Source: an uncultured Gammaproteobacteria bacterium (GTDB taxonomy: Bacteria > Patescibacteriota > Microgenomatia > Levybacterales > GWA1-39-11). From it: a DNA stretch of 64,000 bases. The DNA lies in NCBI GenBank assembly GCA_964472415.1, contig CAYYLC010000002.1, forward strand, positions 32,470-96,469. Direction: 5' to 3'. The position numbers were made by a program, and so were the translations under genes. Below are positions 18,978 through 33,912 of this stretch, in pieces; the stretch's first letter is position 1; every line of letters begins with the position of its first letter. The notes beneath the pieces are model-generated. The model saw nothing but the letters and a program-made list of their open reading frames with translations. It was not told the origin of the DNA and did no database searches.

Positions 18978-21413
18978 CTATTTTTCTAATATATAATTAT
19001 TATCATGATCAAGTGTCACAAAGATCTTTTCTCCCTTTCTAATTGTCTCTTCTAGAATCCCTCGGGAAATAAGATTCTCGATATGCTCCTCTATGTATCT
19101 TCTCACATTTCGGGCACCAAAGTCAGCATCAAATGCCTCACGAGAAATTTTAGCTATTGAACTTTCTGAAAAACTGATATCAATACTTTGTTGTAATAAT
19201 TTTTCTTTGAGATCCATAAGCATTAGGTCTGCAATTTTTATTACATGCTCTTTTGCCAAGGGATGAAACACAACAACATCGCTAAATCTATTGATGAGCT
19301 CTGGCCGGAATATTTCCTTTGTAAGGACGAACTCTATTAACTCTGTTTTTATATTCTCTTCTCCTGTTGCAATCTTCTGACGGATAAACTCACTTCCGGC
19401 ATTTGATGTTGCGATAATTATCGCATTAGAAAAAGAAACCTTTTTCCCTTTATTATTTGTCACAAATCCTTCATCAAGAATTTGTAGGAATACATCTAAA
19501 AGTCGCGTATTCGCTTTCTCAAATTCGTCAAGGAGCACCACTGAGAATGGATTTTTTACAATCTTATCTATTAAACTTTCTGAAAAACTCTGCTCTCCAG
19601 GCATTTCTCCCAATAGTTTTTTCATCGATTCCTCCGTCTGATATTCTGACATGTCAACTCGAATCATTTTCTTTTCATCGCCAAAATATTCCTTTGAGAG
19701 GAGTTTTGCCATCGTCGTCTTCCCCACACCACTGGGTCCTAAAAATAAAAATGACGCGATTGGTCCTTGGCTTTTTTTTAATCCGCTCCTTAATCGCCTT
19801 ACTGCATTCGATACTGCTGAAACTGCTTCATTTTGACCCACTAGTCGCTTATGAAGCGTGTCTTCTAGATTGAGTAATTTCTTCTTCTCCTCAACAGTAG
19901 GCGCAGACAAATTTACGCCAGTCTTCTCCACTATAAGCTCTTGCACGTCCGCTGCAGTAATTGTATTTCTTCCTGCATGAAATACTCGGACTATTGTGTC
20001 TTCCAGAAGTCGTATTGCAGAACCAGGAAGCAACAGATTTGACGAATATAAATTTGCAGAATTGATAATTTCCCGAACTGCTCCATACGTCACAATTACA
20101 TTCGAGCTTTTTTCCCTAATCTCAATATCATGAATTGCCATAAATAATGTAGTTTTTTCGTCTGGCTCATCAAGCGAGATCGCGTGAAAATGAATCTGAA
20201 CTGAAGATTTTGGTGCAATAAAATCTTTATATGCTTGTGGTGTCGTCGTTCCGATAATCTGCACACGGCTACTTTCTAAATATGGCTCAAGTGCCCCTGA
20301 AATATCAAAATTAAATCCACCCCCACCAAAAATATTCTCTATGCTCTCCAAAAATACAATAACATTTCCCGCATGAGAAACTTCAGTAAAAATATTATTC
20401 AATCTCCTCTCTATCTCTCCCCTATCCTTTGCACCGGAAATCAACCTATCAATAAACAAAAAATATATCCTTTTTCTCTTGAGATTTTTCGTGATCTCTC
20501 CTTTATGCGCATCATACGCAACGTCCATCACTAACGTCGTCTTCCCAACGCCCGGATTCCCAATCAAAAGAACATTACTTGAAGATCCTCGCGAAAGGCT
20601 TTCTATCATTTGCCGATATTCTTTTTCTCTCCCCACTGCTTTTGGTTCATATCCAAGGCGTATTACTTCACTCGTAAAATCAGATGTATATTTTTTTGTA
20701 GCAGGAGTCCAACCATGTATCAATTGGTCGAAAATACCACTTCCATTAAAAGTACCCTGCAACACTTCCGTCGGGTCTTCAATACGAAATCTTTTCCTCA
20801 CCCAAAACAAAATAACCAACATATCTTGAGCCATTAACCCCTCTTGTTCTAAGATTTTTACACTTGGCTCTTGAAGTAAAATATAAGCAACTAATACATC
20901 TACTGCATGGATATATTTTCCTTGAATCATCTGCACCAATTCCCCAGCCTTTTTTAAAAGTTCATCTTTGGAAAGATTTATATCGACAAGCTGAAGTGAA
21001 GAATTTATTTTTTGAATAGCAAATCTTCCTTCTTTTGTACGGGCAATCTGTACAACAAGCTCATGGCTTGTCTGTGGTGACAGCATGTCTGCTCGAACAT
21101 TAAACAACGTAGCTTCATAGAGATTTTCAGCATTAGTTACTGTCCTTGCCGGATTTAGGGTACGGAGTTTTTTAATAAATAATTCTTGGAGGATTAACAC
21201 AAAAAGGAACGGTGAGAGAATCAAGAGTATCCGAACATTATCAAAAAAAAGTATCCCAATTACAAAAACCAGCATGAATAATACTCCTCGCACAAACAAT
21301 GCTTCTTTTGTATTCAAAATTTTATAGAGTTTAAAATGATTAGAGCCCAACATAGAAAAGATATAATAATAACCCTGGAAGTATAAAAAAGAGTGCAATG
21401 ATAAAAAGTTCAA
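18978..21413 (-). CDS. ClpA/ClpC-like double-AAA+ ATPase with N-terminal transmembrane segments; no M-domain; no obvious ClpP-docking tripeptide
   Basis: Two Walker A motifs (LIGNPGVGKTT and LFLGPSGVGKTT) and a Clp_N-like region. Hydrophobic segments lie at the N-terminus (VLFMLVFVIGILFF, LLILSPFLFVLIL). A short linker separates AAA1 from AAA2. No [IVL]GF loop seen between ATSNAGS and FRPELINRF. Confidence 0.7.
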   Translation of the reverse strand: MNFLSLHSFLYFQGYYYIFSMLGSNHFKLYKILNTKEALFVRGVLFMLVFVIGILFFDNVRILLILSPFLFVLILQELFIKKLRTLNPARTVTNAENLYEATLFNVRADMLSPQTSHELVVQIARTKEGRFAIQKINSSLQLVDINLSKDELLKKAGELVQMIQGKYIHAVDVLVAYILLQEPSVKILEQEGLMAQDMLVILFWVRKRFRIEDPTEVLQGTFNGSGIFDQLIHGWTPATKKYTSDFTSEVIRLGYEPKAVGREKEYRQMIESLSRGSSSNVLLIGNPGVGKTTLVMDVAYDAHKGEITKNLKRKRIYFLFIDRLISGAKDRGEIERRLNNIFTEVSHAGNVIVFLESIENIFGGGGFNFDISGALEPYLESSRVQIIGTTTPQAYKDFIAPKSSVQIHFHAISLDEPDEKTTLFMAIHDIEIREKSSNVIVTYGAVREIINSANLYSSNLLLPGSAIRLLEDTIVRVFHAGRNTITAADVQELIVEKTGVNLSAPTVEEKKKLLNLEDTLHKRLVGQNEAVSAVSNAVRRLRSGLKKSQGPIASFLFLGPSGVGKTTMAKLLSKEYFGDEKKMIRVDMSEYQTEESMKKLLGEMPGEQSFSESLIDKIVKNPFSVVLLDEFEKANTRLLDVFLQILDEGFVTNNKGKKVSFSNAIIIATSNAGSEFIRQKIATGEENIKTELIEFVLTKEIFRPELINRFSDVVVFHPLAKEHVIKIADLMLMDLKEKLLQQSIDISFSESSIAKISREAFDADFGARNVRRYIEEHIENLISRGILEETIRKGEKIFVTLDHDNNYILEK

Positions 21414-21675
21414 TTATGATAAGGATAAGGAAAAAAAATCCAACCAAACTCAAAAGGAAAGTCTTAATGAAAATCCCAAATACGATAGAAAATAATACTA
21501 ATCCTTTCCGATACTCATTCTTCAAAGGTTTAAAGAATGTTTGCAAAAGAAGACCTACGGAAAATAATTTTGCAAGATATGAGTTAAGTTTTACGAAAAA
21601 ATCTATTACCCCAAACCCTACATCATGATACCAAAAAACAAGAAGATCCAATGGATACATGAGGGCAGTTTTCAT
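21340..21675 (-). CDS. Small polytopic membrane protein ORF overlapping the start of the Clp-like gene (separate gene or frameshifted N-terminus)
   Basis: 111 aa, very hydrophobic (FFLILIIIELFIIALFFILPGLLLYLF). It overlaps the downstream Clp ORF by 74 nt in a different frame. Confidence 0.25.
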   Translation of the reverse strand: MKTALMYPLDLLVFWYHDVGFGVIDFFVKLNSYLAKLFSVGLLLQTFFKPLKNEYRKGLVLFSIVFGIFIKTFLLSLVGFFFLILIIIELFIIALFFILPGLLLYLFYVGL

Positions 21676-21724: not shown

Positions 21725-22591
21725 CTAAAACCATCCTTTTTTCGAACTCTCTTTCTCAAACTCCTCAATAAGTTTTTTCTGCTTCGAATTCAGCTTTTTA
21801 GGGATTTGAATTTTTATTTGCACAAAATGACTCCCCTTTTGACTACTATTAATCCGCTTTATCCCCTTATCCTTTATGCGAATAAGTGCACCCGGCTGAG
21901 TTCCCTGAGGAATCTTCAGTTTAATCGTTCCATCAAGTGCTCGAATTTCAGTAATTCCACCAAGTAAAGCGAGTGTAAAAGAAATCTCTTCTTCAGAAAA
22001 AATATCAGATCCCCGTCGTTCAAAAAAATCATGGGGTGCAACATCAATCACCACATCAAACTCCTCAAATCGAATCCGTTGCCCACTACTGATTCCAGCA
22101 GGGATTTTTATACTCCGCTCTTTCCCTTCAACTGCCACCTTCTTTGTTACCCCTTTTACCGCCTCCATAAATTCAATCCTGAGTGAATACACCGGCTTTC
22201 TCTGCCCAAAAGGACTTCCACCACCAAAGAATTGCTCAAAAATATCAAATGGATCATTAAACCCAAAATCTTGATTATTTGCATTCTGTCCAGATGAGTA
22301 ATAATACCGGAATGGTCCTCCTCCGCCACCGCCAAATGGCCCTCCCCCATACGACCCACCAGCATCACCTCTTGGCCCTTCACTTGATCCATACTGATCA
22401 TAATTTTGCCGCTTTTGAGGATTTGAAAGCACTTCATATGCCTCATTGATTTCCTTAAATTTTCCTTCCGCATCCTTTGATTTGTTCTTATCCGGATGAT
22501 ATTCTACAGCTAGCTTTCTATATGCTTTTTTCAATTCATCAGCAGTAGCATTTTTTGATACTCCTAAAACTTGATAATAATCTTTCGCCAT
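21725..22591 (-). CDS. DnaJ-family co-chaperone lacking the zinc-finger domain (type II / CbpA-like)
   Basis: J-domain [33 protein letters not shown], a G/F-rich region, then C-terminal beta domains with no CxxCxGxG repeats. Confidence 0.8.
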
Positions 22592-22629
22592 AATGGATAT
22601 TTTAGCATTCGAGATGCTCTATTGCTAGT

Positions 22630-24459
22630 TTACTGACTCGTACAGATTAGAGGGCATAACTGTATACTACCTTCACCTTGATTACACGATGGATCAAAAT
22701 CACACCGATAATATTTTATGGGCGTAGGAGTAGCAGTAGGCTTTTTTGCCGCTTCTGTAGGAGGCTGTATAGGATCATTAGTCGGTAATGGCCCAGAAGT
22801 AGGCTGGATTACTACCGTAACAGTAGGCTGTGCGATATCTCTCGTAACCCGAATGGGAACCTGAATAGAGGGGCTATTCTGATCAAGAATAAGGTCTTCT
22901 GTACTTATCCCTTGGTAGCCTATGCGAAATGTCCCCGGAAAAAGGCTATCGAAAATAAAGGTTCCATCAGTAAGCGTCGCAGTCGTATCAGAATATGCTC
23001 CTGAAAGCTCAACTATCTGATTCTCCATAGGTGAATCTCCAGCATCAAAGGAGCCACTATTATTAGTATCTTCATATATAATACCTTGAATATAATATTG
23101 CGCAACACCAGGGGTCAGTGTTACTTGAGGGTCAGGGGTCAATGTAGGTATTGTAATACTCCCACTCCGTCCACAATTTGCTATCGCATTTGCGATATTC
23201 AGGCGTGGACCAATAGAAGACGATGAGGAAGTGCCATCCGCATTACTCACTAAGCAACTTTCCACTTCAGCTGATGTAAGTCCTGAATTCACAGAGAGCA
23301 AGAGTGCTGCAGCACCTGCTACATGAGGCGCTGCCATTGACGTTCCTTGCATCACTTTATAACTAGCACCAGGAATAGTAGATAATATATTTACACCAGG
23401 AGCCGAAATATCAACAGTATCTCCATAATTACTAAATGATGCTTTTCCATCATTTTGTGTCGACGCACCTACCGAAATTACTCCTTGGCATGAAGCGGGA
23501 GTAAACCCTACTGCATCCGTATTACTATTCCCTGCTGCGACAACTACAACGACCCCTTTAGAAATGCCTTCATTAATTGCATTTTGATACGACGACTGCG
23601 GAGCGCACGACCCTCCTCCACCAAGACTCATATTAATCACTCTCGCTCCATTAGTTATTGCATATTCTATCCCTGAAACAATACTCTGAGTAGTACCCCC
23701 GCATCGACCGTATGCTGGACCCATGGTCTTTACGGGCATAATACGAACATCCCAATTCACGCCCACAACCCCCACATCATTATCACCCACTGCACCAACT
23801 GTTCCTGCGACATGGGTTCCGTGACCACATTCATCAGATGGATCGGAGTCATTGGAATAAAAATCGTATCCTGAAGTCAACCTACCAGATAAGTCTGGAT
23901 GCGAGAGATCAATTCCACTATCAATCACCGCGACAGTGATCGCACTCGATCCGATCGTAGTATCCCATGCGACCGGCGCTTGTATTTTTTCTAGTCCCCA
24001 CAAACTAGAATACTGAGGATCATTTGGAATACGAAATGGTTCCATAATAAAGTTCGGTTCAGAAGCAAGTATTTCATTAATATGAGAAAGCTCTTCTTGA
24101 AGCACTCCAATATCTTTTCCTTCTTCAAGCTTCAATAAATAATACCTACTCAATAATCCCTCCATGGATTCATACGCCTTCTCCTGACTCTCTACTCCGA
24201 ACGCTTTCAGCCTTATCTCTAGATCTTGTCTCTGAGAATCACTTAACTCATGAGGCGCTTTATCTTCTCTATAGTTAACAAGTAATTCATAAGGAACATA
24301 TGGCGCTACCGGAGGAATCGCAACATACGGATCACGACTCAAAAAGTATCCTACTACAAAGCTTCCTATCCCCAAAAAAAGAACTCCGGAAAGAGCGACT
24401 ACTAGTTTCTTATTCTTGAAATATTTAGAACGTTTCAAATTGCGTATTTGGCTCGGCAT
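22630..24459 (-). CDS. Subtilisin-like serine protease (S8) with N-terminal TM, I9-like propeptide, CarboxypepD_reg-like domain and Cys-rich C-terminal tail
   Basis: Catalytic Asp (VAVIDSGID), His (HGTHVAGT) and Ser (GTSMAAPHVAGAAALL). The C-terminus reads YYRCDFDPSCNQGEGSIQLCPLICTSQ. Confidence 0.85.
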   Translation of the reverse strand: MPSQIRNLKRSKYFKNKKLVVALSGVLFLGIGSFVVGYFLSRDPYVAIPPVAPYVPYELLVNYREDKAPHELSDSQRQDLEIRLKAFGVESQEKAYESMEGLLSRYYLLKLEEGKDIGVLQEELSHINEILASEPNFIMEPFRIPNDPQYSSLWGLEKIQAPVAWDTTIGSSAITVAVIDSGIDLSHPDLSGRLTSGYDFYSNDSDPSDECGHGTHVAGTVGAVGDNDVGVVGVNWDVRIMPVKTMGPAYGRCGGTTQSIVSGIEYAITNGARVINMSLGGGGSCAPQSSYQNAINEGISKGVVVVVAAGNSNTDAVGFTPASCQGVISVGASTQNDGKASFSNYGDTVDISAPGVNILSTIPGASYKVMQGTSMAAPHVAGAAALLLSVNSGLTSAEVESCLVSNADGTSSSSSIGPRLNIANAIANCGRSGSITIPTLTPDPQVTLTPGVAQYYIQGIIYEDTNNSGSFDAGDSPMENQIVELSGAYSDTTATLTDGTFIFDSLFPGTFRIGYQGISTEDLILDQNSPSIQVPIRVTRDIAQPTVTVVIQPTSGPLPTNDPIQPPTEAAKKPTATPTPIKYYRCDFDPSCNQGEGSIQLCPLICTSQ

Positions 24460-24874
24460 TTACTACTTCTGGCAACAGATAGATTTGCTGTGCTACTTCT
24501 TCTATATTAGTACCTTGCTGAAACTTTAACAAGTAATATCTGCTCAAAGCTCCTTCTTCTGCTTCATACGCCCTCTCTTGAGAAATAACCCCAAAGCTCT
24601 CAAAGAGACTCAAAATCTCTTGCTGCCGTTCCGGCACTAAATTATCAAACTCCTGACCCTCAGAATATTGAATAATAAGCTCCTCTTCTACACGGGGTGC
24701 ATCAGGAAATGTAGGAAGCGGTGCTTTTTGCGTCGGCGTAGGAATCAATAGGACATGATCTTCAGACTCTTCCACGCTACTCGCCAGAAAAAATAACACC
24801 ACTGGGATTAATACTGCAACACCGAGAAGGATGACTACTATTTTTCTATTTTTTACAGAAAGTTTTTGTATCAT
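24425..24874 (-). CDS. Membrane-anchored stand-alone subtilisin-propeptide (inhibitor I9)-like protein, paralogous to the N-terminus of the downstream S8 protease
   Basis: TM (IVVILLGVAVLIPVVLFFLA), then ELIIQYSEGQEFDNLVPERQQEILSLFESFGVISQERAYEAEEGALSRYYLLKF... This aligns with the S8 gene segment ELLVNYREDKAPHELSDSQRQDLEIRLKAFGVESQEKAYESMEGLLSRYYLLKL. It overlaps the S8 gene by 35 nt. Confidence 0.6.
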   Translation of the reverse strand: MIQKLSVKNRKIVVILLGVAVLIPVVLFFLASSVEESEDHVLLIPTPTQKAPLPTFPDAPRVEEELIIQYSEGQEFDNLVPERQQEILSLFESFGVISQERAYEAEEGALSRYYLLKFQQGTNIEEVAQQIYLLPEVVNAEPNTQFETF

Positions 24875-27855
24875 TGTGTTGTTTGAGAATCTCCATTTAC
24901 TGCCATAGTTAATGCCTCACCAGTCGCAGGGTCAACAGGAGGAGGGGCTGGAGTTGGATCTTGAGTAATTGGTGCTGCCGGATCAACAATTATTCCACTA
25001 TTTTGCGGAGGTAGCGGTTGACCAGGAGGATACATTCCTTGATTCATTTGAGGATTTCCACCCTGCTGAAGATTGTATACCCCATTTTGCGGCACTACCT
25101 GCCCTCCCTGTTGCACACCATCTTGCCTAAGAGACGGATCCAATTGCGTAGGGTTTTGTTGGGCAGTTGGATTATTAGGGTCTACTGGAATTGTACCTTG
25201 TTGAGGAGGAGCTCCCATCTCCTGCTGCTGATTCTGTGAATTCAATGATTTTTTAAAAGTAAATTGTTTCGTTTGCTCATCATAATCTACGATAATTATA
25301 TCTCCTTGAACAAATTTCTTCCCAATAATATCCATGCTTATCGGGTTTTCTATAACTGACTGGATGAGTCGCCTCAACGGACGGGCACCATACACAGGAT
25401 CAAATCCATCCTTTGCTAAAATCTCAACTGCTTTCTCCGTTATCTCGAGCCCGAATCCTTGCTCTTTCAAAAGTTTCTGCGTATTCTTAATCCCCAACTT
25501 CGAGATCGCATTCATATATTTTTGAGTCAATGGTTTAAAAATGGCAACACCATCAAACCTATTTATAAGTTCTGGTCTAAAGAATTTGATAAGCTCATCC
25601 ATAAGATTCTTGGAGAGCTCCTGGAATACTTTCTCATCAATTTTCTCCTCATCTGTCATTCCTGCTTCCACACTTGAGCTCGGTGGCTGTTCATTTTGAG
25701 AATTTTGATTTTCAGCACTAGGCACAGCTTGAGCCTGTTCAGCACTTACCTCTGCCCCTTTTTCCTTATTATCTGCTACAGAAAGCTCCTTTACTTCTTT
25801 TTGTGTAATTAATGTTTCTTGAATCAATCTGCTCCCAATGTTTGATGTTGCAATAACAATCGTGTTTTTAAATGAAATCGTATTTCCTTTATTATCAGTT
25901 AGCCTTCCATCCTCAAGGAGCTGAAGAAGGATATTAAATACATCCGGGTGTGCTTTCTCTACCTCATCAAGCAACACTATAGAATATGGCTTATGCCTGA
26001 CCGCCTCAGTTAACTGTCCGCCCTCTTCATACCCTACATATCCAGGAGGTGCACCAATGAGCTTTGCAACCTCATGTTTTTCCATATATTCAGACATATC
26101 GAGCCTGACCATCGCATCATCTCTTCCAAATAAAATTTCTGCGAGTGTTTTTGCAAGCTCTGTTTTTCCGACTCCTGTAGGACCCAAAAACATAAATGAT
26201 GCTATTGGCCTATTTGCCGAAGCGAGACCAATCCTCCCACGACGCACTGCTTCTGAGACTGCCTTTACTGCCTCTTCTTGATCAATTAGCCTTTGATGAA
26301 TCAAATCCTCAAGCTGCAAAAGCTTTTTACTTTCATCCTCAGTAAGTTTTGTAACAGGAATTCCTGTCCATGCACTTACAACCTTTTCTATATCAGCCCT
26401 AACAACTTGTGTATCTTTTCGCTTCCCCTCAGCAGCCATAAGCTTTACCTCCGCTGCTGCCTCATCTATTAAATCAATTGATTTATCAGGAAGGTGCCGC
26501 TCACCGATATATTTTTTCGAGAGTTTTACTGAATATTCTATTGCCTCAGGAGTGATAGTTACATTATGAAACTTTTCATATTTTACCTGTAAAACCTTCA
26601 TCATTTCTATTGCCGTCTCGACGCTTGGCTCTTCTACAATTATCGCCTGGAAACGTCTCTGAAATGCCTTGTCTTTTTCAAAGAACTTTCTATATTCTGC
26701 AGTAGTCGTAGTCCCAATAATCTGCAATTGCCCTCGTGCAAGATATGGCTTAATGATGTTTGATGCATCCATCGCACCATCTGTTGAACCAGCGCCAATA
26801 AGCGTATGAATCTCGTCAATAAATAATAGATATTTCCCTTCAGAAAGCATCACTTCTTTAATGACATTCTTCAATCGCTCTTCAAATTCTCCCCTATGCG
26901 AAGCCCCAGCAATAAGAGAAGTTAAATCAAGTTGAATTATTTTCTTATCTTGAAGTTCTTTTGGGAGTTTTTTCTGGACCATTAACTGTGCAAGTGCTTC
27001 AACAATTGCTGTTTTTCCAACTCCTGCCTCCCCAATTAAAATTGGATTATTTTTACTCCGCCTGAGCAATATATGCACAGTGCGCTCTATTTCTTTTTCA
27101 CGGCCGACAACTGGATCAAGCTTTCCGTTTTGCGCCTCAAGCGTTAAATCGATTCCGAACTCCTCAATAACACTTTTTTTACCGGTCTTGAACTTTGTAT
27201 CTTTTTGGATTGCCTCCTCAAAAGCCTTTTTTTCTATTCCTTTCGCCGAAAGAAGTTGTGCAGCTGACTCAGAAGAAAACAGCGCAAGCAATAAATCTTC
27301 TGGTGAAACAAAGCTTGTTCCTCGTTTCTGAGAATTCTGATACGCTTCATCAAAGATCCTCTGTGTTGCTTCTGATAAAATTGGAGGAGTTGTTGCAGTT
27401 CCCGTTTGCTGATGTGTTTCAATTTCCTGTGCGAGCAGCGCCACATCTACTTGATGCTTCTGGAGAATTTTATATATCTCTCGATCATGCGTTAACGCAA
27501 GAAGAAGCATATCAGGCTCAATTGTAGGATGCTGAAAACGTCTGGCGTCATTCTGAGCCTGCTGAAGAATTTGATTGGATCTAGAATCCAAATGGGAAAG
27601 AGCATTAACGTTTTGTCGTTTTGACGGATCCATAGTTGTTCCCGCAATACCTTGATTTGGGGCCATTCCATTTTGCATTTGAACTTGAGGGGGATATCCT
27701 TGCAAAGGCATCTGTGGTGCTCCCTGAACCATCTGATTTTGCTGAGGATCACCTTGCCCTACTACTTGATTATTTGGCGCAAATAGACCCTGCGGGTTCT
27801 GTGGTGCAGGCTTCGCCTCATCAAATTGTTTTTTCTTAAATAAGTCTCCAAACAT
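24871..27855 (-). CDS. ClpA/ClpC-like double-AAA+ ATPase with Gln/Asn/Pro-rich low-complexity N- and C-terminal extensions
   Basis: Clp_N domain, then AAA1 Walker A IGEAGVGKTA and AAA2 Walker A FLGPTGVGKTE, with no M-domain. The first ~75 aa (PQNPQGLFAPNNQVVGQGDPQQNQMVQGAPQMPLQGYPPQVQMQNG) and the last ~120 aa are Q/N/P-rich. Confidence 0.8.
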   Translation of the reverse strand: MFGDLFKKKQFDEAKPAPQNPQGLFAPNNQVVGQGDPQQNQMVQGAPQMPLQGYPPQVQMQNGMAPNQGIAGTTMDPSKRQNVNALSHLDSRSNQILQQAQNDARRFQHPTIEPDMLLLALTHDREIYKILQKHQVDVALLAQEIETHQQTGTATTPPILSEATQRIFDEAYQNSQKRGTSFVSPEDLLLALFSSESAAQLLSAKGIEKKAFEEAIQKDTKFKTGKKSVIEEFGIDLTLEAQNGKLDPVVGREKEIERTVHILLRRSKNNPILIGEAGVGKTAIVEALAQLMVQKKLPKELQDKKIIQLDLTSLIAGASHRGEFEERLKNVIKEVMLSEGKYLLFIDEIHTLIGAGSTDGAMDASNIIKPYLARGQLQIIGTTTTAEYRKFFEKDKAFQRRFQAIIVEEPSVETAIEMMKVLQVKYEKFHNVTITPEAIEYSVKLSKKYIGERHLPDKSIDLIDEAAAEVKLMAAEGKRKDTQVVRADIEKVVSAWTGIPVTKLTEDESKKLLQLEDLIHQRLIDQEEAVKAVSEAVRRGRIGLASANRPIASFMFLGPTGVGKTELAKTLAEILFGRDDAMVRLDMSEYMEKHEVAKLIGAPPGYVGYEEGGQLTEAVRHKPYSIVLLDEVEKAHPDVFNILLQLLEDGRLTDNKGNTISFKNTIVIATSNIGSRLIQETLITQKEVKELSVADNKEKGAEVSAEQAQAVPSAENQNSQNEQPPSSSVEAGMTDEEKIDEKVFQELSKNLMDELIKFFRPELINRFDGVAIFKPLTQKYMNAISKLGIKNTQKLLKEQGFGLEITEKAVEILAKDGFDPVYGARPLRRLIQSVIENPISMDIIGKKFVQGDIIIVDYDEQTKQFTFKKSLNSQNQQQEMGAPPQQGTIPVDPNNPTAQQNPTQLDPSLRQDGVQQGGQVVPQNGVYNLQQGGNPQMNQGMYPPGQPLPPQNSGIIVDPAAPITQDPTPAPPPVDPATGEALTMAVNGDSQTTQ

Positions 27856-27904
27856 ATTTCTATTATAGACAAATTACAAACTATTGACCAAATTATAAGT
27901 CCCT

Positions 27905-30292
27905 TTATGCATCTTGCTCTCCTGAATTATTATCTTTATTTTGCTCAATTGGCAATTCTCGTCGCATAACCATCTCAGCAGAAGCTGATTCTTGCCGTGG
28001 CTTATTTTTAAGAAGCATATCATCTTCCTCACGCTTTTGGGTTAATGCTTCTAGCACCTCACGACCAGCAGCTTGCTTTGCCTTGAGATATGCAATAACC
28101 TCTGCTTTTGAAAATCCTCCAATTAACAAGAATGGCAACACATCCGAAACTGTTTCCATGCCTTTTTGTATTTGTGTTTGATCTGGAGAGCTTAAGAGAT
28201 TTATTGCTTCTTCTATCTTTTGACCATCCTGAGTAACCCACTCTTCCTTTGAAAGCCTCTTTCCATCAAGCGGTGCTGGTGGTTCCATATTGGCGTAATT
28301 TTCCTTCCATATATTCTTTACTTCTTCATACTCATCCAAGCTTACTTGTTGAACACGATTGACTACCGGCAGTGATGCTTGTGCAATAGCACTTACCCCT
28401 TCTTGCGGAAGTACTTTTTCTGCAAGCTGGCTTCCTTTCTCTTTTTCTGCAAATAATTTCTCCTTTACTTTATCGAGAAGTGATTGTCGCTCTTCCTCAT
28501 TAATTGTCTCACTTGCAACCTTATTACTCATGTCCAAAACATAGGTTGCGAGCGGATTCCCTTGACTCTGCGCAGAGAGTAACTCTTCACGAATAGATTG
28601 TGCCTTTTGTCGCTCTTGGGGAGAAAGTGCTCTTGTAGGAGACGCGATATGCTGAAGCGTAAGATTCAAACGATTCTTTACCATCTCGCCTGCCATTCGT
28701 CCTCGCATACCAACTTGTGATCCAAGACGTGACGCACTCAAAATAGAAGATGCAAGAGGGTCTCCCTTCTGCTGCATTTGAACCAATTTTTCTTTAATAG
28801 TTGTAAACTTCTCACGTTCAATAACAGGAGCTGTCGCAGGAGATGAGATTTGACTCAGCTTATTTGTTACCTCAGTGCGCTGCTGCTGAATAGTCTGATT
28901 TTTTGTCAATGAGGCTGATTCCATACGCGCAATATCACGCATTTTTGGAATTGAGAGATTTGCAAGTCGCATTACCTCTGTCGTTTCATTTGTAACTGCA
29001 GAAGTCCTTTGTTGAGAAGATACCCCTTTATTTACATCAGCACTCGTTATTTTCTTAACAGGTATCTGCATTTGCCGCTTATTTGAAAATGGCAAACTCA
29101 TAGCACGCCCAGCTCCTGCCGGACTAATTGGCGGTGGGGGAGGAGGAGATCCAGGAGGAGATCCAGCAGGTTGATTGATAAATGGAATGTTTGTCCTTGC
29201 TATTCGCCGATACAACGCAGTCTCGGTAAATGATGCATTATTTATGTAATCCAAAAATATCTGCAACAACAGCCAGGGAAGGAGGATCACTACCCAGAGC
29301 ATTAAGAGCGCTACGACATACTGTGCAAATGTGTCACTCAAATTTACAGAATTTGTAATTCCGATTCGCTGCGCTGGACCTCCAAGTAAAATACTAATTG
29401 CTGTCGGATATACTACCTGACCTTGTTCTACTCCAGAAAAATCAAATCCTAATGGAATTCTATCTCGCCACATTCCAACTAAACCATGGAGGAAAATCGC
29501 AAAAAGAGGAGCGTATAAAAGCCATCGGAAAAATTCTCCCACCCATACTTTGGCAGTATTTCTCAGTGGAGAAAAAAAGATTAAAAGCGGAAAAACAGGC
29601 GAGATGATAAGAAAAAACCATAATATAATTTTCCTGATTAGGAGAATACCTGACATCACATAATATGTCACCGCAGTAATCCGAACAAGTAAAAGCGAAA
29701 TATAGGCAGACTCATCATATTGGATACCTGCCTTTCGATAACCCATAAATTGATAATCAAATCCTATATAGAGAAGGTCTGTTGGATCAATCAATCGTTC
29801 ATTCTGAGACTCTGGATCTGTCGTTGCAAGAAAGAAACCTTGAATAACATCAAAAAACTGATAAAGAAATCTCACAATCGCAAAGGACAAAACAATAAAA
29901 AGGAGAATTATGATGAATCGAGGAATAAACCGCACAATGGTAAGATTCTGCCCTCTTGTAATAATCATAATAAACGCAGCAACAAGAATAAAAAGTACGA
30001 TTAACGCAAGAACTATTCGAAGAATCTCGCTCCAAAATACTGCTAGAGGATTCGTTGCAGCATCTTCTCCAAGATCAATCCACTCATAATTCTGCAATGT
30101 CCATTCTAAAAACGCATTTGCACGAGCTGCCGTTTTCCCAATAAACGTTACCTCTTGATCTTCTCTCCAATCGGCTAACACATCGGGCACAGGGGTAGTG
30201 CCCACAACTTGTGCTGAAGCAGTGCCGGGAAAGGAAAAGACACCTGATAAAAATAGGACTGTGGTAAACAATATGGGCAGTAATCGTTTCAT
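27905..30292 (-). CDS. Large polytopic membrane protein, VirB6/TrbL-like (putative type IV secretion-like channel component) with a long coiled C-terminal cytoplasmic domain
   Basis: Signal peptide, about 6-7 TM helices over residues 90-350, a poly-Pro linker (SPPGSPPPPPPISPAG), then a ~400-aa Gln/Glu/Lys-rich domain. It lies immediately downstream of a VirB2-like pilin gene. The family assignment is by architecture. Confidence 0.35.
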   Translation of the reverse strand: MKRLLPILFTTVLFLSGVFSFPGTASAQVVGTTPVPDVLADWREDQEVTFIGKTAARANAFLEWTLQNYEWIDLGEDAATNPLAVFWSEILRIVLALIVLFILVAAFIMIITRGQNLTIVRFIPRFIIILLFIVLSFAIVRFLYQFFDVIQGFFLATTDPESQNERLIDPTDLLYIGFDYQFMGYRKAGIQYDESAYISLLLVRITAVTYYVMSGILLIRKIILWFFLIISPVFPLLIFFSPLRNTAKVWVGEFFRWLLYAPLFAIFLHGLVGMWRDRIPLGFDFSGVEQGQVVYPTAISILLGGPAQRIGITNSVNLSDTFAQYVVALLMLWVVILLPWLLLQIFLDYINNASFTETALYRRIARTNIPFINQPAGSPPGSPPPPPPISPAGAGRAMSLPFSNKRQMQIPVKKITSADVNKGVSSQQRTSAVTNETTEVMRLANLSIPKMRDIARMESASLTKNQTIQQQRTEVTNKLSQISSPATAPVIEREKFTTIKEKLVQMQQKGDPLASSILSASRLGSQVGMRGRMAGEMVKNRLNLTLQHIASPTRALSPQERQKAQSIREELLSAQSQGNPLATYVLDMSNKVASETINEEERQSLLDKVKEKLFAEKEKGSQLAEKVLPQEGVSAIAQASLPVVNRVQQVSLDEYEEVKNIWKENYANMEPPAPLDGKRLSKEEWVTQDGQKIEEAINLLSSPDQTQIQKGMETVSDVLPFLLIGGFSKAEVIAYLKAKQAAGREVLEALTQKREEDDMLLKNKPRQESASAEMVMRRELPIEQNKDNNSGEQDA

Positions 30293-30295
30293 AGC

Positions 30296-30592
30296 TTAGC
30301 TGAATCCGGGAATTTGTAAAATATCTCCACTAATAATTTGCATAAACACAAACCCGAAAACAGCAAGCAAGACGCCAATAATAGAATACGTTATGTATGA
30401 TTTTCCTATTTGAAGCTTACTTGGATCGCCCTGAGAAGTCATAATATAATACCCACCCACAATAATAAAAATAAGCGCAACCATTCCAATAAACCCAAGC
30501 CCTATTCCATAAAATTTCTCAACAAATCCGACAGGGTCATTCGGGATACACCCAAAATCTGTCATTATTTCACTAGGAGCACACACAGCCAT
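30296..30592 (-). CDS. VirB2/TrbC-like T4SS-type pilin (two-TM hairpin)
   Basis: Two conserved N-terminal Cys (C4, C15), TM1 FYGIGLGFIGMVALIFIIVGGYYIM, the loop motif TSQGDPSKLQIGKSYI, and TM2 YSIIGVLLAVFGFVFMQII. Confidence 0.4.
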   Translation of the reverse strand: MAVCAPSEIMTDFGCIPNDPVGFVEKFYGIGLGFIGMVALIFIIVGGYYIMTSQGDPSKLQIGKSYITYSIIGVLLAVFGFVFMQIISGDILQIPGFS

Positions 30593-30645
30593 AGTATCAT
30601 CGTATCATGCAGAAGAACGCAAGACAAGAATTGGAGAAGAGGAAA

Positions 30646-32553
30646 TTAGTTTTTTACGTCAGGCTCGTCTACGACTTCACCTTCCATAGATTCTTTTGTA
30701 TCTTTTTCAGGAGCTTCTTTCGTATCATCTGAAGAAGTCTTATCTGAAGAATCTGTTTGCTCAGCTTGAGAATACATTTTTTCACCAATCTTTGAGAGTG
30801 CCTCAGAAAGTTCCTTTGTTTTGCTTTCTATCTCATCCCTACTTTCTCCTTCAAGCGTCTTTCTCAAATCAGAGATAAGAGTCTCAAGGCCTTTCTTATC
30901 ATCTTCATTCATATCTTTCATATCATTGATTGTCTTCTCAGTAGTAATAATAAGCGCCTCTGCACTATTTTTTGCATCAATAATCTCTTTTTTCTTTTTA
31001 TCTTCTTCAGCATACATCTCCGCTTCTTTTGTCATTTTTTGTATTTCTTCATCAGAAAGACCGGTAGATCCAGTAATCGTAATGCTTTGCTCTTTTCCAG
31101 TTGCTTTGTCTTTTGCAGTAACAGACAACATTCCTGAAGCATCAATATCAAATGTCACTTCAACCTGAGGCACGCCTCGTGGTGCTGGTGGAATTCCATC
31201 AAGAATAAAACGTCCAAGCGACTTATTATCAGCGGCCATTGGGCGCTCTCCTTGAAGAATATGAATCTCTACTTGAGTTTGATTATCAGCTGCGGTTGAA
31301 AATATTTGTGATTTCTTCGTAGGAATTGTCGCATTTTTCTCAATTAATGGCGTTGCGACTCCGCCCAGCGTTTCAATAGAAAGTGTTAATGGTGTGACAT
31401 CAAGAAGTAGAACATCTTTCACATCTCCCCCTAAAACTCCAGCCTGTACTGCAGCACCAACTGCTACAACCTCATCAGGGTTTACAGACTTATTTGGCTC
31501 CTTCCCAAAAAACTTTGTTACTTCTTCCACAATCTTTGGCATTCGCGTCATTCCTCCCACCAGGATAACTTCATCAATTTTCCCTGATTCTACTTTTGCA
31601 TCTTTGAGCGCCTTTTTTACCGGATCAAAAGTTCTCGTAATCAAATCTGAAACAAGAGATTCCAGCTTTGAGCGAGAGAGCTTTGTCGTGAGATGAAGTG
31701 GGCCACTATCAGACATGGTGATAAATGGCTGATTGATCTCTACCTCCTTTGAAGAAGAGAGTTCTATTTTCGCTTTCTCAGCCGCCTCTTTCAGACGCTG
31801 CAAAGCCTGCTTATCCGCTCGCAAATCCACACTGTGTTCTTTCTTAAATTCATCTGCGAGATAGTCGATCAACGCTTGATCGAAATCATCTCCTCCAAGG
31901 TGCGTGTCTCCATTTGTGGCCTTTACTTCGTATACACCCTCACCAAGTTCCAGAATAGAAATATCAAACGTTCCACCACCCAAATCATATACTGCAATTG
32001 TGTGTGCATGCTTTTTATCCATTCCATAAGAAAGTGCAGCTGCAGTCGGCTCGTTTACAATTCTGAGCACTTCAAGCCCAGCAATTTCACCTGCTTGTTT
32101 CGTCGCCTGACGCTGAGCATCATCAAAATATGCAGGGACAGTAATTACTGCTTGCGTTACTTTATCACCAAGATAATCTTCTGCATCCTTTTTGAGTTTT
32201 TGGAGAACCTTCGCTGAAATTTCCTGTGGAGTATATGTCTTTCCGTCTACTTCAACTGCCACCATCCCATTTTTTCCTTCGACGATCTTATACGGAAGGA
32301 ATTTTATAGCCTCCTGTACCTCTTTATCCTTGAAGCGTCTTCCCATAAGCCTCTTTACAGAGTAAATAATTTTTTCCGGTTTTAGAACCATCTGACGCTT
32401 CGCAACTTCTCCTACCACTCCTTCAACAGGATCAACTACTGACGGGGTCGTGTTTTTACCTTCCGAATTAAAAATTACCTTCGGACTTCCACCCTCCATG
32501 ACAGCCATGCAAGAATTCGTTGTACCTAAATCTATTCCTATTATTTTTCCCAT
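30646..32553 (-). CDS. dnaK: Molecular chaperone DnaK (Hsp70)
   Basis: [26 protein letters not shown], and a full Hsp70 architecture with an acidic C-terminus. Start chosen at MGKIIG by homology; the track ORF extends to 32607. Confidence 0.95.
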
Positions 32554-32628
32554 AATTACATTTATTGTTTTATTTTTATCAAATATTTCGCTTATATCAA
32601 GTATCAATTCCTTAATACTTTATATAAA

Positions 32629-33093
32629 TTAAATATTCTCTTCGCCACCCCCTACTCTTACCTGTGCGGGCCGAATTACTTTATCAAATAGCATAAACCC
32701 TGGCATCAATTCTGCAACTACAATATCTTTTTTTCCCTCTACCACATCAACGCACTCCATTTGATTCGGATCAAACTCCCTCCCCAATACTTCGATTCTT
32801 ACAACTCCTACCTCCTGCAGACTCTCCGTCAACTTCTTAATAGTTAGCTTAATTCCTTCATCTTCAATATATCTTTCTGCTAAGTATAAATTATCGAAAG
32901 CCGGCAAAAGCCTTTTTAAGAGCTCTTCGTTTGCATATCTGATAGAACCTGCTCGCTCCTCAAGGACGCGTCTTTCAAGATTCTGATAATCAGCAAGTGC
33001 CCTCTTCAAGTTCTCTTCAAGATTTGCTATTTGATTTTCAAAGTCCTTTACATCAGTCTTTTTCTTATTACCTGTTTTCTTCTCCTCTTTCAT
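32629..33093 (-). CDS. grpE: Nucleotide exchange factor GrpE
   Basis: Coiled N-terminus, then KRLLPAFDNL...VGVVRIEVLGREFDPNQMECV, typical of GrpE. It sits between hrcA and dnaK. Confidence 0.85.
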   Translation of the reverse strand: MKEEKKTGNKKKTDVKDFENQIANLEENLKRALADYQNLERRVLEERAGSIRYANEELLKRLLPAFDNLYLAERYIEDEGIKLTIKKLTESLQEVGVVRIEVLGREFDPNQMECVDVVEGKKDIVVAELMPGFMLFDKVIRPAQVRVGGGEENI

Positions 33094-33107
33094 AGTATGT
33101 TTTCATT

Positions 33108-33830
33108 TTACCAATCTGCAACCTCATCTACCAGTGACCCATAGTATCGAACAACTGGCAAGATGTATTCGTATCGCATCCGGAACGGTCCGATAACACC
33201 AATCGTTCCTGTATAACTTCGCCTTGTATTAAATTTTGCAAAAACAAAACTATACGGTCTCAAAACTTCTTGCTCAAACTCGTCTCCCAAAATTACCGTA
33301 CATTTCTCAGTAATCCTTCCATAAATTGCATCAAAATACTCTTCATTATCTAAAATTGCTAATAAGTTCTTCATGACATCAATGTCATAAAATTCTGGCA
33401 TTGAGAGAATGTTTGAATATCCTGCAAAAAATAAATCGCCTACGCTCGTACTCGCAACAGCAAGTGACTTTGTCTTCTCTGCCAATTTCTTTGTTGCTGC
33501 ACGTAAAAACTGTGCTTCTTTTGAACGCAAGTCCCAAATATTTTCTTTTGCCTCAACCTCTTCTGCAACAGAAAGCTCTTTTTCTTTCATAAGCTCGTTG
33601 ATGTAGAGCTTTATTGCTCTTGAAGTTGGAACATTTCCTGATGAGGAATGGGCTTTTGCAAGATATCCTTTTTTTACCATGCTTGCCGTTTCATTCCTAA
33701 TCGTAGCTGGACTTACTCCCAAGTCATATTTTTTCTCAAGAGTCTCAGACCCAACTGGACTTGCTGTATCTGTATATTCTTTGACAATGTGCTTCAAGAT
33801 CTCGATTTGTCGCTGCGTTAAATCGTACAT
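33108..33830 (-). CDS. hrcA: Heat-inducible transcription repressor HrcA
   Basis: MYDLTQRQIEILKHIVKEYTDTASPVGSETLEKKY (winged-helix N-terminus). Start chosen at MYDL so that the CIRCE operator lies upstream; the track ORF starts at 33908. Confidence 0.8.
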   Translation of the reverse strand: MYDLTQRQIEILKHIVKEYTDTASPVGSETLEKKYDLGVSPATIRNETASMVKKGYLAKAHSSSGNVPTSRAIKLYINELMKEKELSVAEEVEAKENIWDLRSKEAQFLRAATKKLAEKTKSLAVASTSVGDLFFAGYSNILSMPEFYDIDVMKNLLAILDNEEYFDAIYGRITEKCTVILGDEFEQEVLRPYSFVFAKFNTRRSYTGTIGVIGPFRMRYEYILPVVRYYGSLVDEVADW

Positions 33831-33853
33831 ACCTGCTAAACGTTTATTGAGTA

Positions 33854-33880
33854 TTAGCACTAATATAGCATGACTGCTAA
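33854..33880. promoter_or_regulatory. CIRCE operator (HrcA binding site) upstream of hrcA-grpE-dnaK
   Basis: TTAGCACTA-ATATAGCAT-GACTGCTAA versus consensus TTAGCACTC-N9-GAGTGCTAA, one mismatch per half-site. Confidence 0.8.
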
Positions 33881-33912
33881 GTCTTGTCAAGAGCCTCCAT
33901 GATGTCAAATCA

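Follow-up and report, generated by a model that had tools for sequence, protein, structure and literature searches.

The stretch of DNA analysed here (64,000 nucleotides, or 64 kb, of contig CAYYLC010000002.1, placed by GTDB among the Patescibacteriota; hereafter the window) carries on its minus strand a small gene whose end overlaps the start of a gene for a subtilase of family S8. The small gene appears to encode a predicted transmembrane anchor followed by a linker and a propeptide-like domain (prodomain), which is to say the N-terminal part of the neighbouring protease made as a protein of its own. The two genes and their parts, in window coordinates, are as follows.

24425..24874, minus strand: gene for the free-standing, transmembrane-anchored prodomain (149 amino acids plus stop), from the open reading frame (ORF) list, BLASTP, homologues and the ratio of nonsynonymous to synonymous substitution rates (dN/dS)
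24776..24847, minus strand: predicted N-in/C-out transmembrane helix (residues 10-33), with K4, K8, R10 and K11 before the helix, from the AlphaFold helix and the sequence
24695..24775, minus strand: low-confidence Pro/Thr-rich linker (residues 34-60) that includes PLPTFPDAPRVE, from the predicted local distance difference test score (pLDDT) and motif conservation
24443..24694, minus strand: predicted prodomain fold beta1-alpha1-beta2-beta3-alpha2-beta4 (residues 61-144), ending in E141-P-N143, from AlphaFold, Foldseek and PF22148
24428..24442, minus strand: C-terminal tail T-Q-F-E-T-F (residues 144-149), with Phe149 at the predicted P1 column, from alignments and the N-termini of thermitase and AK.1 protease
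24425..24459, minus strand: 35 nt shared by the 3' end of the small ORF and the S8 gene as read from its first ATG (24459), from the sequence
22630..24459, minus strand: thermitase-like S8 protease of 609 amino acids, from Pfam PF00082 (9.6e-59), SdrD_B, AlphaFold and the thermitase match
24034..24300, minus strand: cis prodomain of the S8 protease (residues 54-142), paralogue of the small ORF, from alignments and the same secondary-structure order

The small ORF starts with an ATG that overlaps the stop codon of a Clp ATPase gene by 4 nt (ATGA, 24871-24874) and encodes 149 amino acids on the minus strand. It had been described, in the original prediction, as a free-standing gene located upstream of an S8 protease with its own prodomain and overlapping that gene by 35 nt. 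The ORF list and the sequence agree with this arrangement: the overlap is as described for the first ATG of the S8 gene, and the small ORF, here as in every relative, is a separate reading frame with start and stop codons of its own, whose product is not a fragment of a protease precursor. An in-frame TTG at 24438 offers an alternative S8 start, which would shorten the overlap to 14 nt. Every relative examined has an in-frame S8 start 14-56 nt inside the small ORF, and in six loci (L010, L011, L012, L094, L095 and L097) the gene callers used such overlapping starts. Close coupling of the two genes is a conserved possibility, with the S8 start itself a candidate among the ATG and TTG codons.

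The S8 protease has a transmembrane helix (residues 17-40), followed by its own prodomain (54-142) and a catalytic domain that extends from 143 to about 430; behind this come an SdrD_B-like domain and a C-terminus rich in Pro, Thr and Cys. The catalytic set of Asp180, His213 and Ser374, together with the oxyanion Asn311, is invariant in 65 homologues, and the AlphaFold model of residues 1-440 (pLDDT 92.9) superimposes on thermitase with a TM-score of 0.95. Foldseek matches obtained with this model are confined to catalytic domains, and the match to pro-subtilisin E has a root-mean-square deviation of 24 Å.

The end of the protease has features of its own. A Pro/Thr-rich spacer and a four-Cys module, YRCDFDPSCNQGEGSIQLCPLICTSQ, make up its C-terminus (window positions 22630-22760), and the module is kept in S8 orthologues with the consensus Y-x-C-x-x-D-P-x-C ... 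I-Q-x-C-x-L-x-C. At the related loci L005, L006 and L007, which form one lineage, the S8 orthologue is 950 amino acids long (L005, 6453-9305) and has an extra C-terminal Peptidase_M28 (aminopeptidase) domain, a fusion of two proteases; the free-standing prodomain gene upstream of this fusion is unchanged.

The resemblance between the small protein and the N-terminus of the protease, which had first been noted from a short shared motif, is far more extensive than that motif. BLASTP aligns the small ORF with S8 residues 15-142 at 37% identity and 55% positives over 145 amino acids (E 2e-22), and the alignment runs from the basic N-terminus (KNRKIVV versus KNKKLVV) through the transmembrane helix, the linker and the whole prodomain to the last residue of the small protein. 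The core originally written as QERAYE..EG.LSRYYLLK is found in both proteins, as SQERAYEAEEGALSRYYLLK in the small ORF and SQEKAYESMEGLLSRYYLLK in the protease. The 64 kb of the window hold no second S8 gene and no prodomain copies other than these two.

Six free-standing copies were compared, element by element, with the cis prodomains of the same six loci. Identity between the two groups is 0.44, 0.90, 0.68 and 0.41 in strands beta1 to beta4, as against 0.10 in helix alpha1 and 0.06 in helix alpha2; within the free-standing group, the identity of alpha2 is 0.74. In solved complexes of subtilisin with its propeptide the sheet lies against the enzyme, with the helices turned to the solvent. 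Since the strands have been kept while the helices have diverged, and since it is the sheet that faces the enzyme in the known complexes, both paralogues plausibly bind the same surface of the S8 protease.

The position at which the small protein ends is the most informative detail. In the crystal chains of mature thermitase (1thm) and of AK.1 protease (1dbi), the alignment to the S8 protease begins with residue 3, opposite Pro145, which places the first residue of the mature enzyme at Arg143 and the predicted autoprocessing site at Phe142|Arg143. Phe149, the last residue of the small protein, aligns without gaps to Phe142, the predicted P1 residue. Among 67 free-standing relatives, 44 likewise end at the P1 column (35 of them with Phe there), 13 end one residue later and 10 further on. 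In the fused proteins the chain continues past this column into the mature enzyme, which opens with x-(T/I)-P-N-D-P. The E141-P-N143 motif of the small protein lies six residues before its C-terminus (Phe149). This matches the spacing of Glu69/Asp71 from the end of the propeptide of subtilisin BPN', which is 77 residues long. Glu69 and Asp71 are the helix-capping residues of the subtilisin propeptide (PMC6993865). As judged from these alignments, the gene is truncated at the predicted junction and encodes the equivalent of a prodomain-cleavage product, with a free carboxylate at P1.

The AlphaFold model of the small protein averages a pLDDT of 81.7 and rises above 90 within the domain, where it contains beta1 (61-70), alpha1 (81-93), beta2 (96-101), beta3 (113-118), alpha2 (124-132) and beta4 (137-144). 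The same order of elements is found in residues 54-137 of the S8 model and corresponds to the described topology of subtilase propeptides (PMC6993865). In a Foldseek search of the PDB the top match was a subtilase prodomain chain (8c4z_A), and further matches included 8c4x_B, 8gko_A and the prodomains of Aspergillus alkaline protease, PCSK9 and site-1 protease; the matches are weak, with E-values no better than 3e-3, and are interleaved with folds of the generic ferredoxin-like kind (RRM, S6, ACT). Searching the PDB sequences with profiles of the domain alignments gave nothing significant. On the strength of the model, the fold is that of an I9-type subtilase propeptide. The five-residue tail that follows beta4 is modelled with lower confidence.

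Outside the domain, the model places a helix at residues 10-33, in keeping with the transmembrane anchor originally proposed for the ORF. The N-terminus has four basic residues, then about 20 hydrophobic ones and then an acidic stretch, and a conserved (V/L/F)-A-S follows the helix. Residues 31-50 have a pLDDT of about 52, and the PLPTFPDAPRVE motif of the linker is both specific to the free-standing copies and conserved in them. The small protein contains no Cys in its 149 residues and hence no lipobox.

The original prediction had labelled the domain I9. As the name of a fold class this holds, given the AlphaFold model and the Foldseek matches, but as a Pfam assignment it does not, since PF05922 (Inhibitor_I9) gave no match either with the window protein (E up to 1) or with 49 free-standing relatives linked to it by profile search (E up to 0.01). 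By sequence, the family appears to be PF22148 (Fervidolysin_NPro-like), the N-terminal prodomain of fervidolysin. This profile is matched by 45 of the 49 relatives, with a best E-value of 1.2e-14; the window protein falls just short of the cut-off of 21 bits, with 18.4 bits (E 0.0028) over the C-terminal half of the profile only. Peptidase_S8_N is matched by seven of the 49. The family of free-standing proteins is at present without a name or annotation: most of its members, the window protein included, carry no Pfam assignment, and looking up their clusters yielded neither names nor accessions.

The small gene has been maintained. A word-indexed search returned 18 close homologues, all of them free-standing, 119-172 amino acids long and 60-74% identical to the window protein over the domain. 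An exhaustive profile search, run over 1.84 billion cluster representatives, gave 118 proteins with E-values of 1e-3 or lower. Pooled with the earlier searches, these comprise about 67 short proteins with the domain at the very C-terminus and about 64 long ones with the domain near residues 50-160; the long fused proteins that we inspected are S8 enzymes. Pairwise dN/dS values (Nei-Gojobori) among six orthologues range from 0.08 to 0.29, the sole pair with unsaturated dS (0.66) giving 0.147. One of the proteins found in the search of representatives, P0091 (897 amino acids), carries a prodomain-like domain at its C-terminus (residues 788-875) and not at its N-terminus.

Twelve loci were inspected: that of the window, L001, L005, L010, L011, L012, L093, L094, L095, L096, L097 and the P0020 contig. 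In all 12, which include members just 32-36% identical to the window small protein, the small gene directly follows the Clp ATPase gene, directly precedes a prodomain-bearing S8 gene, or does both; any neighbour that was not seen had been cut off by a contig end. These loci keep the two-gene arrangement, and the ORF is intact in every relative. In a neighbour-joining tree of 108 domains, whose branches carry no support values, the free-standing copy of the window falls inside a near-wholly free-standing clade, far from its own cis prodomain, which indicates that the duplication is old and predates the divergence of these genomes. The S8 homologues come from sources named “Patescibacteria group bacterium” and “Candidatus Levybacteria”, pointing to a group near Levybacteria. 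No relatives came out of a pattern scan of the GTDB genomes made with the domain alignment, and a scan with the Clp ATPase found relatives at 38-47% identity in many phyla and none closer. These comparisons show a maintained gene, under purifying selection and conserved across a group of ultra-small Patescibacteria.

The two genes form part of a longer minus-strand string that encodes, in order, HrcA, GrpE, DnaK, a 98-residue pilin-like protein, a 795-residue membrane protein, the Clp ATPase of 994 residues, the small protein, the S8 protease, DnaJ, a 111-residue transmembrane protein and a membrane ClpB-like ATPase. Three further features of this string bear on the two genes.

24871..27855, minus strand: ClpB/ClpC-type double-AAA+ ATPase of 994 amino acids, from Pfam and NCBIfam
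21725..22591, minus strand: DnaJ, next downstream of the S8 gene, from Pfam DnaJ and DnaJ_C
33854..33890, minus strand: inverted repeat (33854-33880) resembling the controlling inverted repeat of chaperone expression (CIRCE), overlapped by a promoter, from repeat and promoter scans

An hrcA-grpE-dnaK-dnaJ operon (21725-33908) is here split between dnaK and dnaJ by five genes, namely those for the pilin-like protein, the 795-residue protein, the ClpB/C ATPase, the anchored prodomain and the S8 protease, and the same five-gene insertion is present in relatives (L001-L007). The CIRCE-like repeat, TTAGCACTA-N9-GACTGCTAA, has two mismatches (0.02 such repeats expected by chance) and stands at the head of the string that holds the small gene and the S8 gene. 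It is overlapped by a near-consensus promoter (TTGACA-17-TATATT with a TG), the best sigma-70-like one of the region, and no convincing terminator was found within the gene string. With this arrangement, heat-shock control of the protease, which is probably secreted, and of its putative inhibitor is plausible. We note that the CIRCE-like repeat lies inside the 5' end of the listed hrcA ORF (TTG at 33908); as both repeat and promoter fall within that ORF, the real hrcA start is probably further downstream.

Several of the neighbouring genes have characteristics worth recording. The 98-residue pilin-like protein (encoded, together with the 795-residue protein, at 27905-30592, minus strand) scores 34.5 bits, against a cut-off of 40, with NCBIfam NF045849, the “Mbov_0395 family pilin-like conjugal transfer protein” of a Mycoplasma integrative and conjugative element, and its relatives weakly match Pfam T4SS_pilin. 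The 795-residue protein that follows it is polytopic, has a long Pro-rich and coiled C-terminal half and matches no family; both genes are kept upstream of the Clp gene in relatives. The ClpB/C ATPase (24871-27855) carries long, low-complexity extensions rich in Gln and Pro, the N-terminal one of about 90 residues and the C-terminal one of about 130, and scores 888 bits against the ClpB equivalog, below the cut-off of 1232.

Downstream of dnaJ, the 811-residue ClpB-like double-AAA+ ATPase (18978-21413, minus strand) lacks a Clp_N domain and has in its stead hydrophobic N-terminal segments that appear to span the membrane. A membrane-anchored, disaggregase-like ATPase of this kind is unusual. 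It is preceded and overlapped by the multi-spanning 111-residue ORF (21340-21675, minus strand), which has no family match, and the pair is kept downstream of the S8 gene in L001, L005, L096 and L097. The 64 kb of the window yielded no tRNA and no Rfam element.

We propose that the small protein is a membrane-tethered (type-II) mimic of an already cleaved propeptide, which binds the co-expressed S8 protease as an inhibitor or a tether, and we give this proposal a probability of roughly one half. Both proteins would be anchored N-in/C-out, as in each a long hydrophobic helix comes after basic N-terminal residues. The zymogen would be held by the transmembrane helix upstream of its own prodomain, and because the anchor lies on that side of the cleavage site, autocleavage at Phe142|Arg143 would detach the mature enzyme from the membrane. 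The free-standing copy would stay on the same membrane and, through its flexible linker of about 27 residues, could bind the catalytic domain in the manner of a cleaved propeptide, its sheet on the enzyme, its F-E-T-F tail in subsites S4-S1 and its carboxylate at P1. An enzyme near the surface of the producer would in this way be kept latent or tethered, with the small protein serving as cognate inhibitor or “immunity” factor and perhaps as a folding aid. As the gene ends overlap, the small protein is presumably made together with the protease, and its production would be matched to that of the enzyme.

The evidence that speaks for this proposal consists of the extent of the paralogy, the stop at the junction, the E-P-N spacing, the conservation of the strands, the selection on the gene, its conserved pairing with an S8 gene, a Clp ATPase gene or both, the fact that this is the sole S8 gene in the window, and the precedents considered below. 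Certain observations weigh against it. The cis prodomain of the protease should already inhibit the enzyme transiently, and the need for a second inhibitor is not obvious. The retention of alpha2 among the free-standing copies (0.74), unlike between these and the cis copies (0.06), hints at a partner, property or constraint specific to the paralogue. The P1 column is mostly Phe in the free-standing copies and most often Gln (29 of 64) in the cis prodomains of the wider family, so the tails of the two are not simple mirrors of each other. It might also be that the transmembrane segment is removed as a signal peptide, which would leave the protein soluble.

The main alternative is that the anchored prodomain might act in trans as a foldase, catalysing or stabilising the folding of the S8 protease at the exit of the Sec channel and not serving as a lasting inhibitor. 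Subtilisin propeptides do act in trans as folding catalysts, and Lif, the N-terminally anchored lipase foldase, is encoded in the same operon as its lipase. The structural evidence (the fold, the conservation of the sheet, the tail) is the same for a foldase as for an inhibitor, and a folding role would suit the place of the gene among those of chaperones (hrcA-grpE-dnaK ... clpB/C ... dnaJ), in an operon headed by a CIRCE-like operator. A foldase looks redundant, however, as the protease keeps a complete and conserved cis prodomain, and the characterised stand-alone propeptide-like proteins are all inhibitors (PMC6993865). We consider a dedicated foldase rather unlikely, and between the two roles we favour that of inhibitor or tether, while noting that they can coexist.

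The proposal of an inhibitor or tether can be carried further, although we regard the extension as speculative and on balance doubtful. The S8 protease, having cut off its own anchor, would be recaptured by the anchored and possibly degradation-resistant prodomain, in a conserved two-part latency system of Patescibacteria. The protease would then be tethered at the surface and inhibited reversibly, and would be expressed under HrcA/CIRCE heat-shock control together with DnaK, DnaJ, ClpB and the membrane ClpB-like ATPase. If this were true, such a system would give ultra-small episymbiotic bacteria an extracytoplasmic arm of proteostasis, or else a weapon kept under control for use on the host cell.

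It is also conceivable, though in our view improbable, that the small protein serves another partner, either a protease encoded elsewhere in the genome or a surface or secretion component of the conserved block, such as the pilin-like protein, the 795-residue membrane protein or the membrane ClpB-like ATPase. Alpha2 and PLPTFPDAPRVE are kept in the free-standing group, unlike in the cis copy, and the pair always lies within a block of genes for a pilin-like protein, a large membrane protein, a Clp ATPase, the small protein, the S8 protease, a small transmembrane protein and a membrane ClpB-like ATPase. Against this, the parts best kept between the free-standing and cis copies are those that touch the enzyme in known complexes (beta2, beta3, E-P-N and the tail ending at P1). 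The adjacent S8 protease is moreover the sole subtilase in the 64 kb, and the overlapping gene ends argue for production matched to it.

The presence of an AAA+ ATPase gene directly before the pair, at every locus, raises the possibility of an IetAS-type toxin-antitoxin or anti-phage module of ATPase and subtilase, with the small protein as an accessory; pairs of AAA-ATPase and S8 protein are validated toxin-antitoxin modules in Mycoplasma and Agrobacterium (PMC8562856). We reject it as highly improbable. The protease scores 25.5 bits against NCBIfam IteS, for which the cut-off is 900, and 36 bits against the PADLOC IetS model, in both cases through the generic catalytic core only. Its ATPase neighbour, a complete ClpB/ClpC scoring 888 bits with ClpB, matches IetA at only about 23 bits. 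With its transmembrane anchor and secretory prodomain the S8 protease would act outside the cell and not as a cytoplasmic toxin, and the genes lie within a housekeeping heat-shock operon.

Least probable of all is the remnant of a partial gene duplication that the original prediction had considered, here a functionless tandem copy from the 5' end of the S8 gene. The ORF does correspond exactly to the first 142 codons of its neighbour and lies directly upstream on the same strand, but by the criteria of the original prediction itself we reject a remnant because the ORF is intact (119-172 amino acids) in the 18 close homologues and also in the approximately 67 representatives, dN/dS is 0.08-0.29 and not near 1, the tree shows an old duplication, and the position of the stop codon is conserved.

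Stand-alone propeptide-like proteins are known as potent inhibitors of subtilases: Pleurotus POIA1, yeast PBI2, Arabidopsis SPI-1, Toxoplasma TgMIC5 and Plasmodium SUB1-ProM, the last of which is syntenic with subtilase genes (PMC6993865). The small protein has in common with these eukaryotic inhibitors, which are of the MEROPS I9 type, an E-x-N/D capping motif near a C-terminal tail capable of entering the cleft, and with SUB1-ProM in particular its location beside a subtilase gene (PMC6993865). The eukaryotic inhibitors are soluble and have little or no sequence similarity to the propeptides of their targets, whereas the small protein is bacterial, predicted to be anchored by a transmembrane helix and a 37% identical paralogue; unlike them it ends at the predicted P1 column, and it does not match PF05922. 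By sequence its family appears instead to be that of the fervidolysin-type prodomain (PF22148), which many of the fused S8 homologues match too. That family was defined on a prodomain within a protease precursor, and here it occurs as a separate protein with a predicted membrane anchor.

The closest functional analogues of the role proposed here are the potempins of Tannerella forsythia, which are membrane-anchored, encoded immediately upstream of and co-transcribed with their target proteases (including the subtilase mirolase), specific inhibitors of their protease and protective of the producer's outer membrane (PMC9890683). The likeness is functional only: potempins are outer-membrane lipoproteins with an OB-fold (oligonucleotide/oligosaccharide-binding fold) or an eight-stranded beta-barrel, unrelated to a propeptide, whereas the small protein has no Cys, a predicted transmembrane helix and the alpha/beta sandwich of the propeptide fold.

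Lif, and PrtM of lactococci, which serves the S8 proteinase PrtP, are held by an anchor on the outer side of the cytoplasmic membrane; they are gene-linked to their secreted enzymes and act on them in trans. Lif is all-helical and PrtM is a PrsA-like lipoprotein, and neither is propeptide-like; in Pfam the small protein matches neither of their families. The window shares with IetA/IetS an AAA+ ATPase gene beside an S8 gene, but here the S8 protein appears to be a secretory zymogen and the ATPase a canonical ClpB/C.

In the open-access literature and in bioRxiv we found no prior description of free-standing, anchored prodomain paralogues in bacteria in general or in Patescibacteria. Stand-alone propeptide mimics that regulate subtilases have been characterised in eukaryotes only, and their origin, possibly by convergence, is debated (PMC6993865). 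In the present case the origin appears to be visible, as an anchor and prodomain that were duplicated, truncated at the predicted cleavage site and long kept across a bacterial clade. If the small protein does bind the enzyme, it would represent a sequence-traceable case in which a cis-acting intramolecular chaperone and inhibitor became a trans regulator, and it would offer a simple, testable system of two small recombinant proteins as well as a first way into the function of a gene block that is conserved among the poorly understood Levybacteria-like Patescibacteria. Rather than a new principle, the small protein is best seen as a bacterial, membrane-anchored and clearly paralogous variant of the stand-alone propeptide-like regulators of subtilases.

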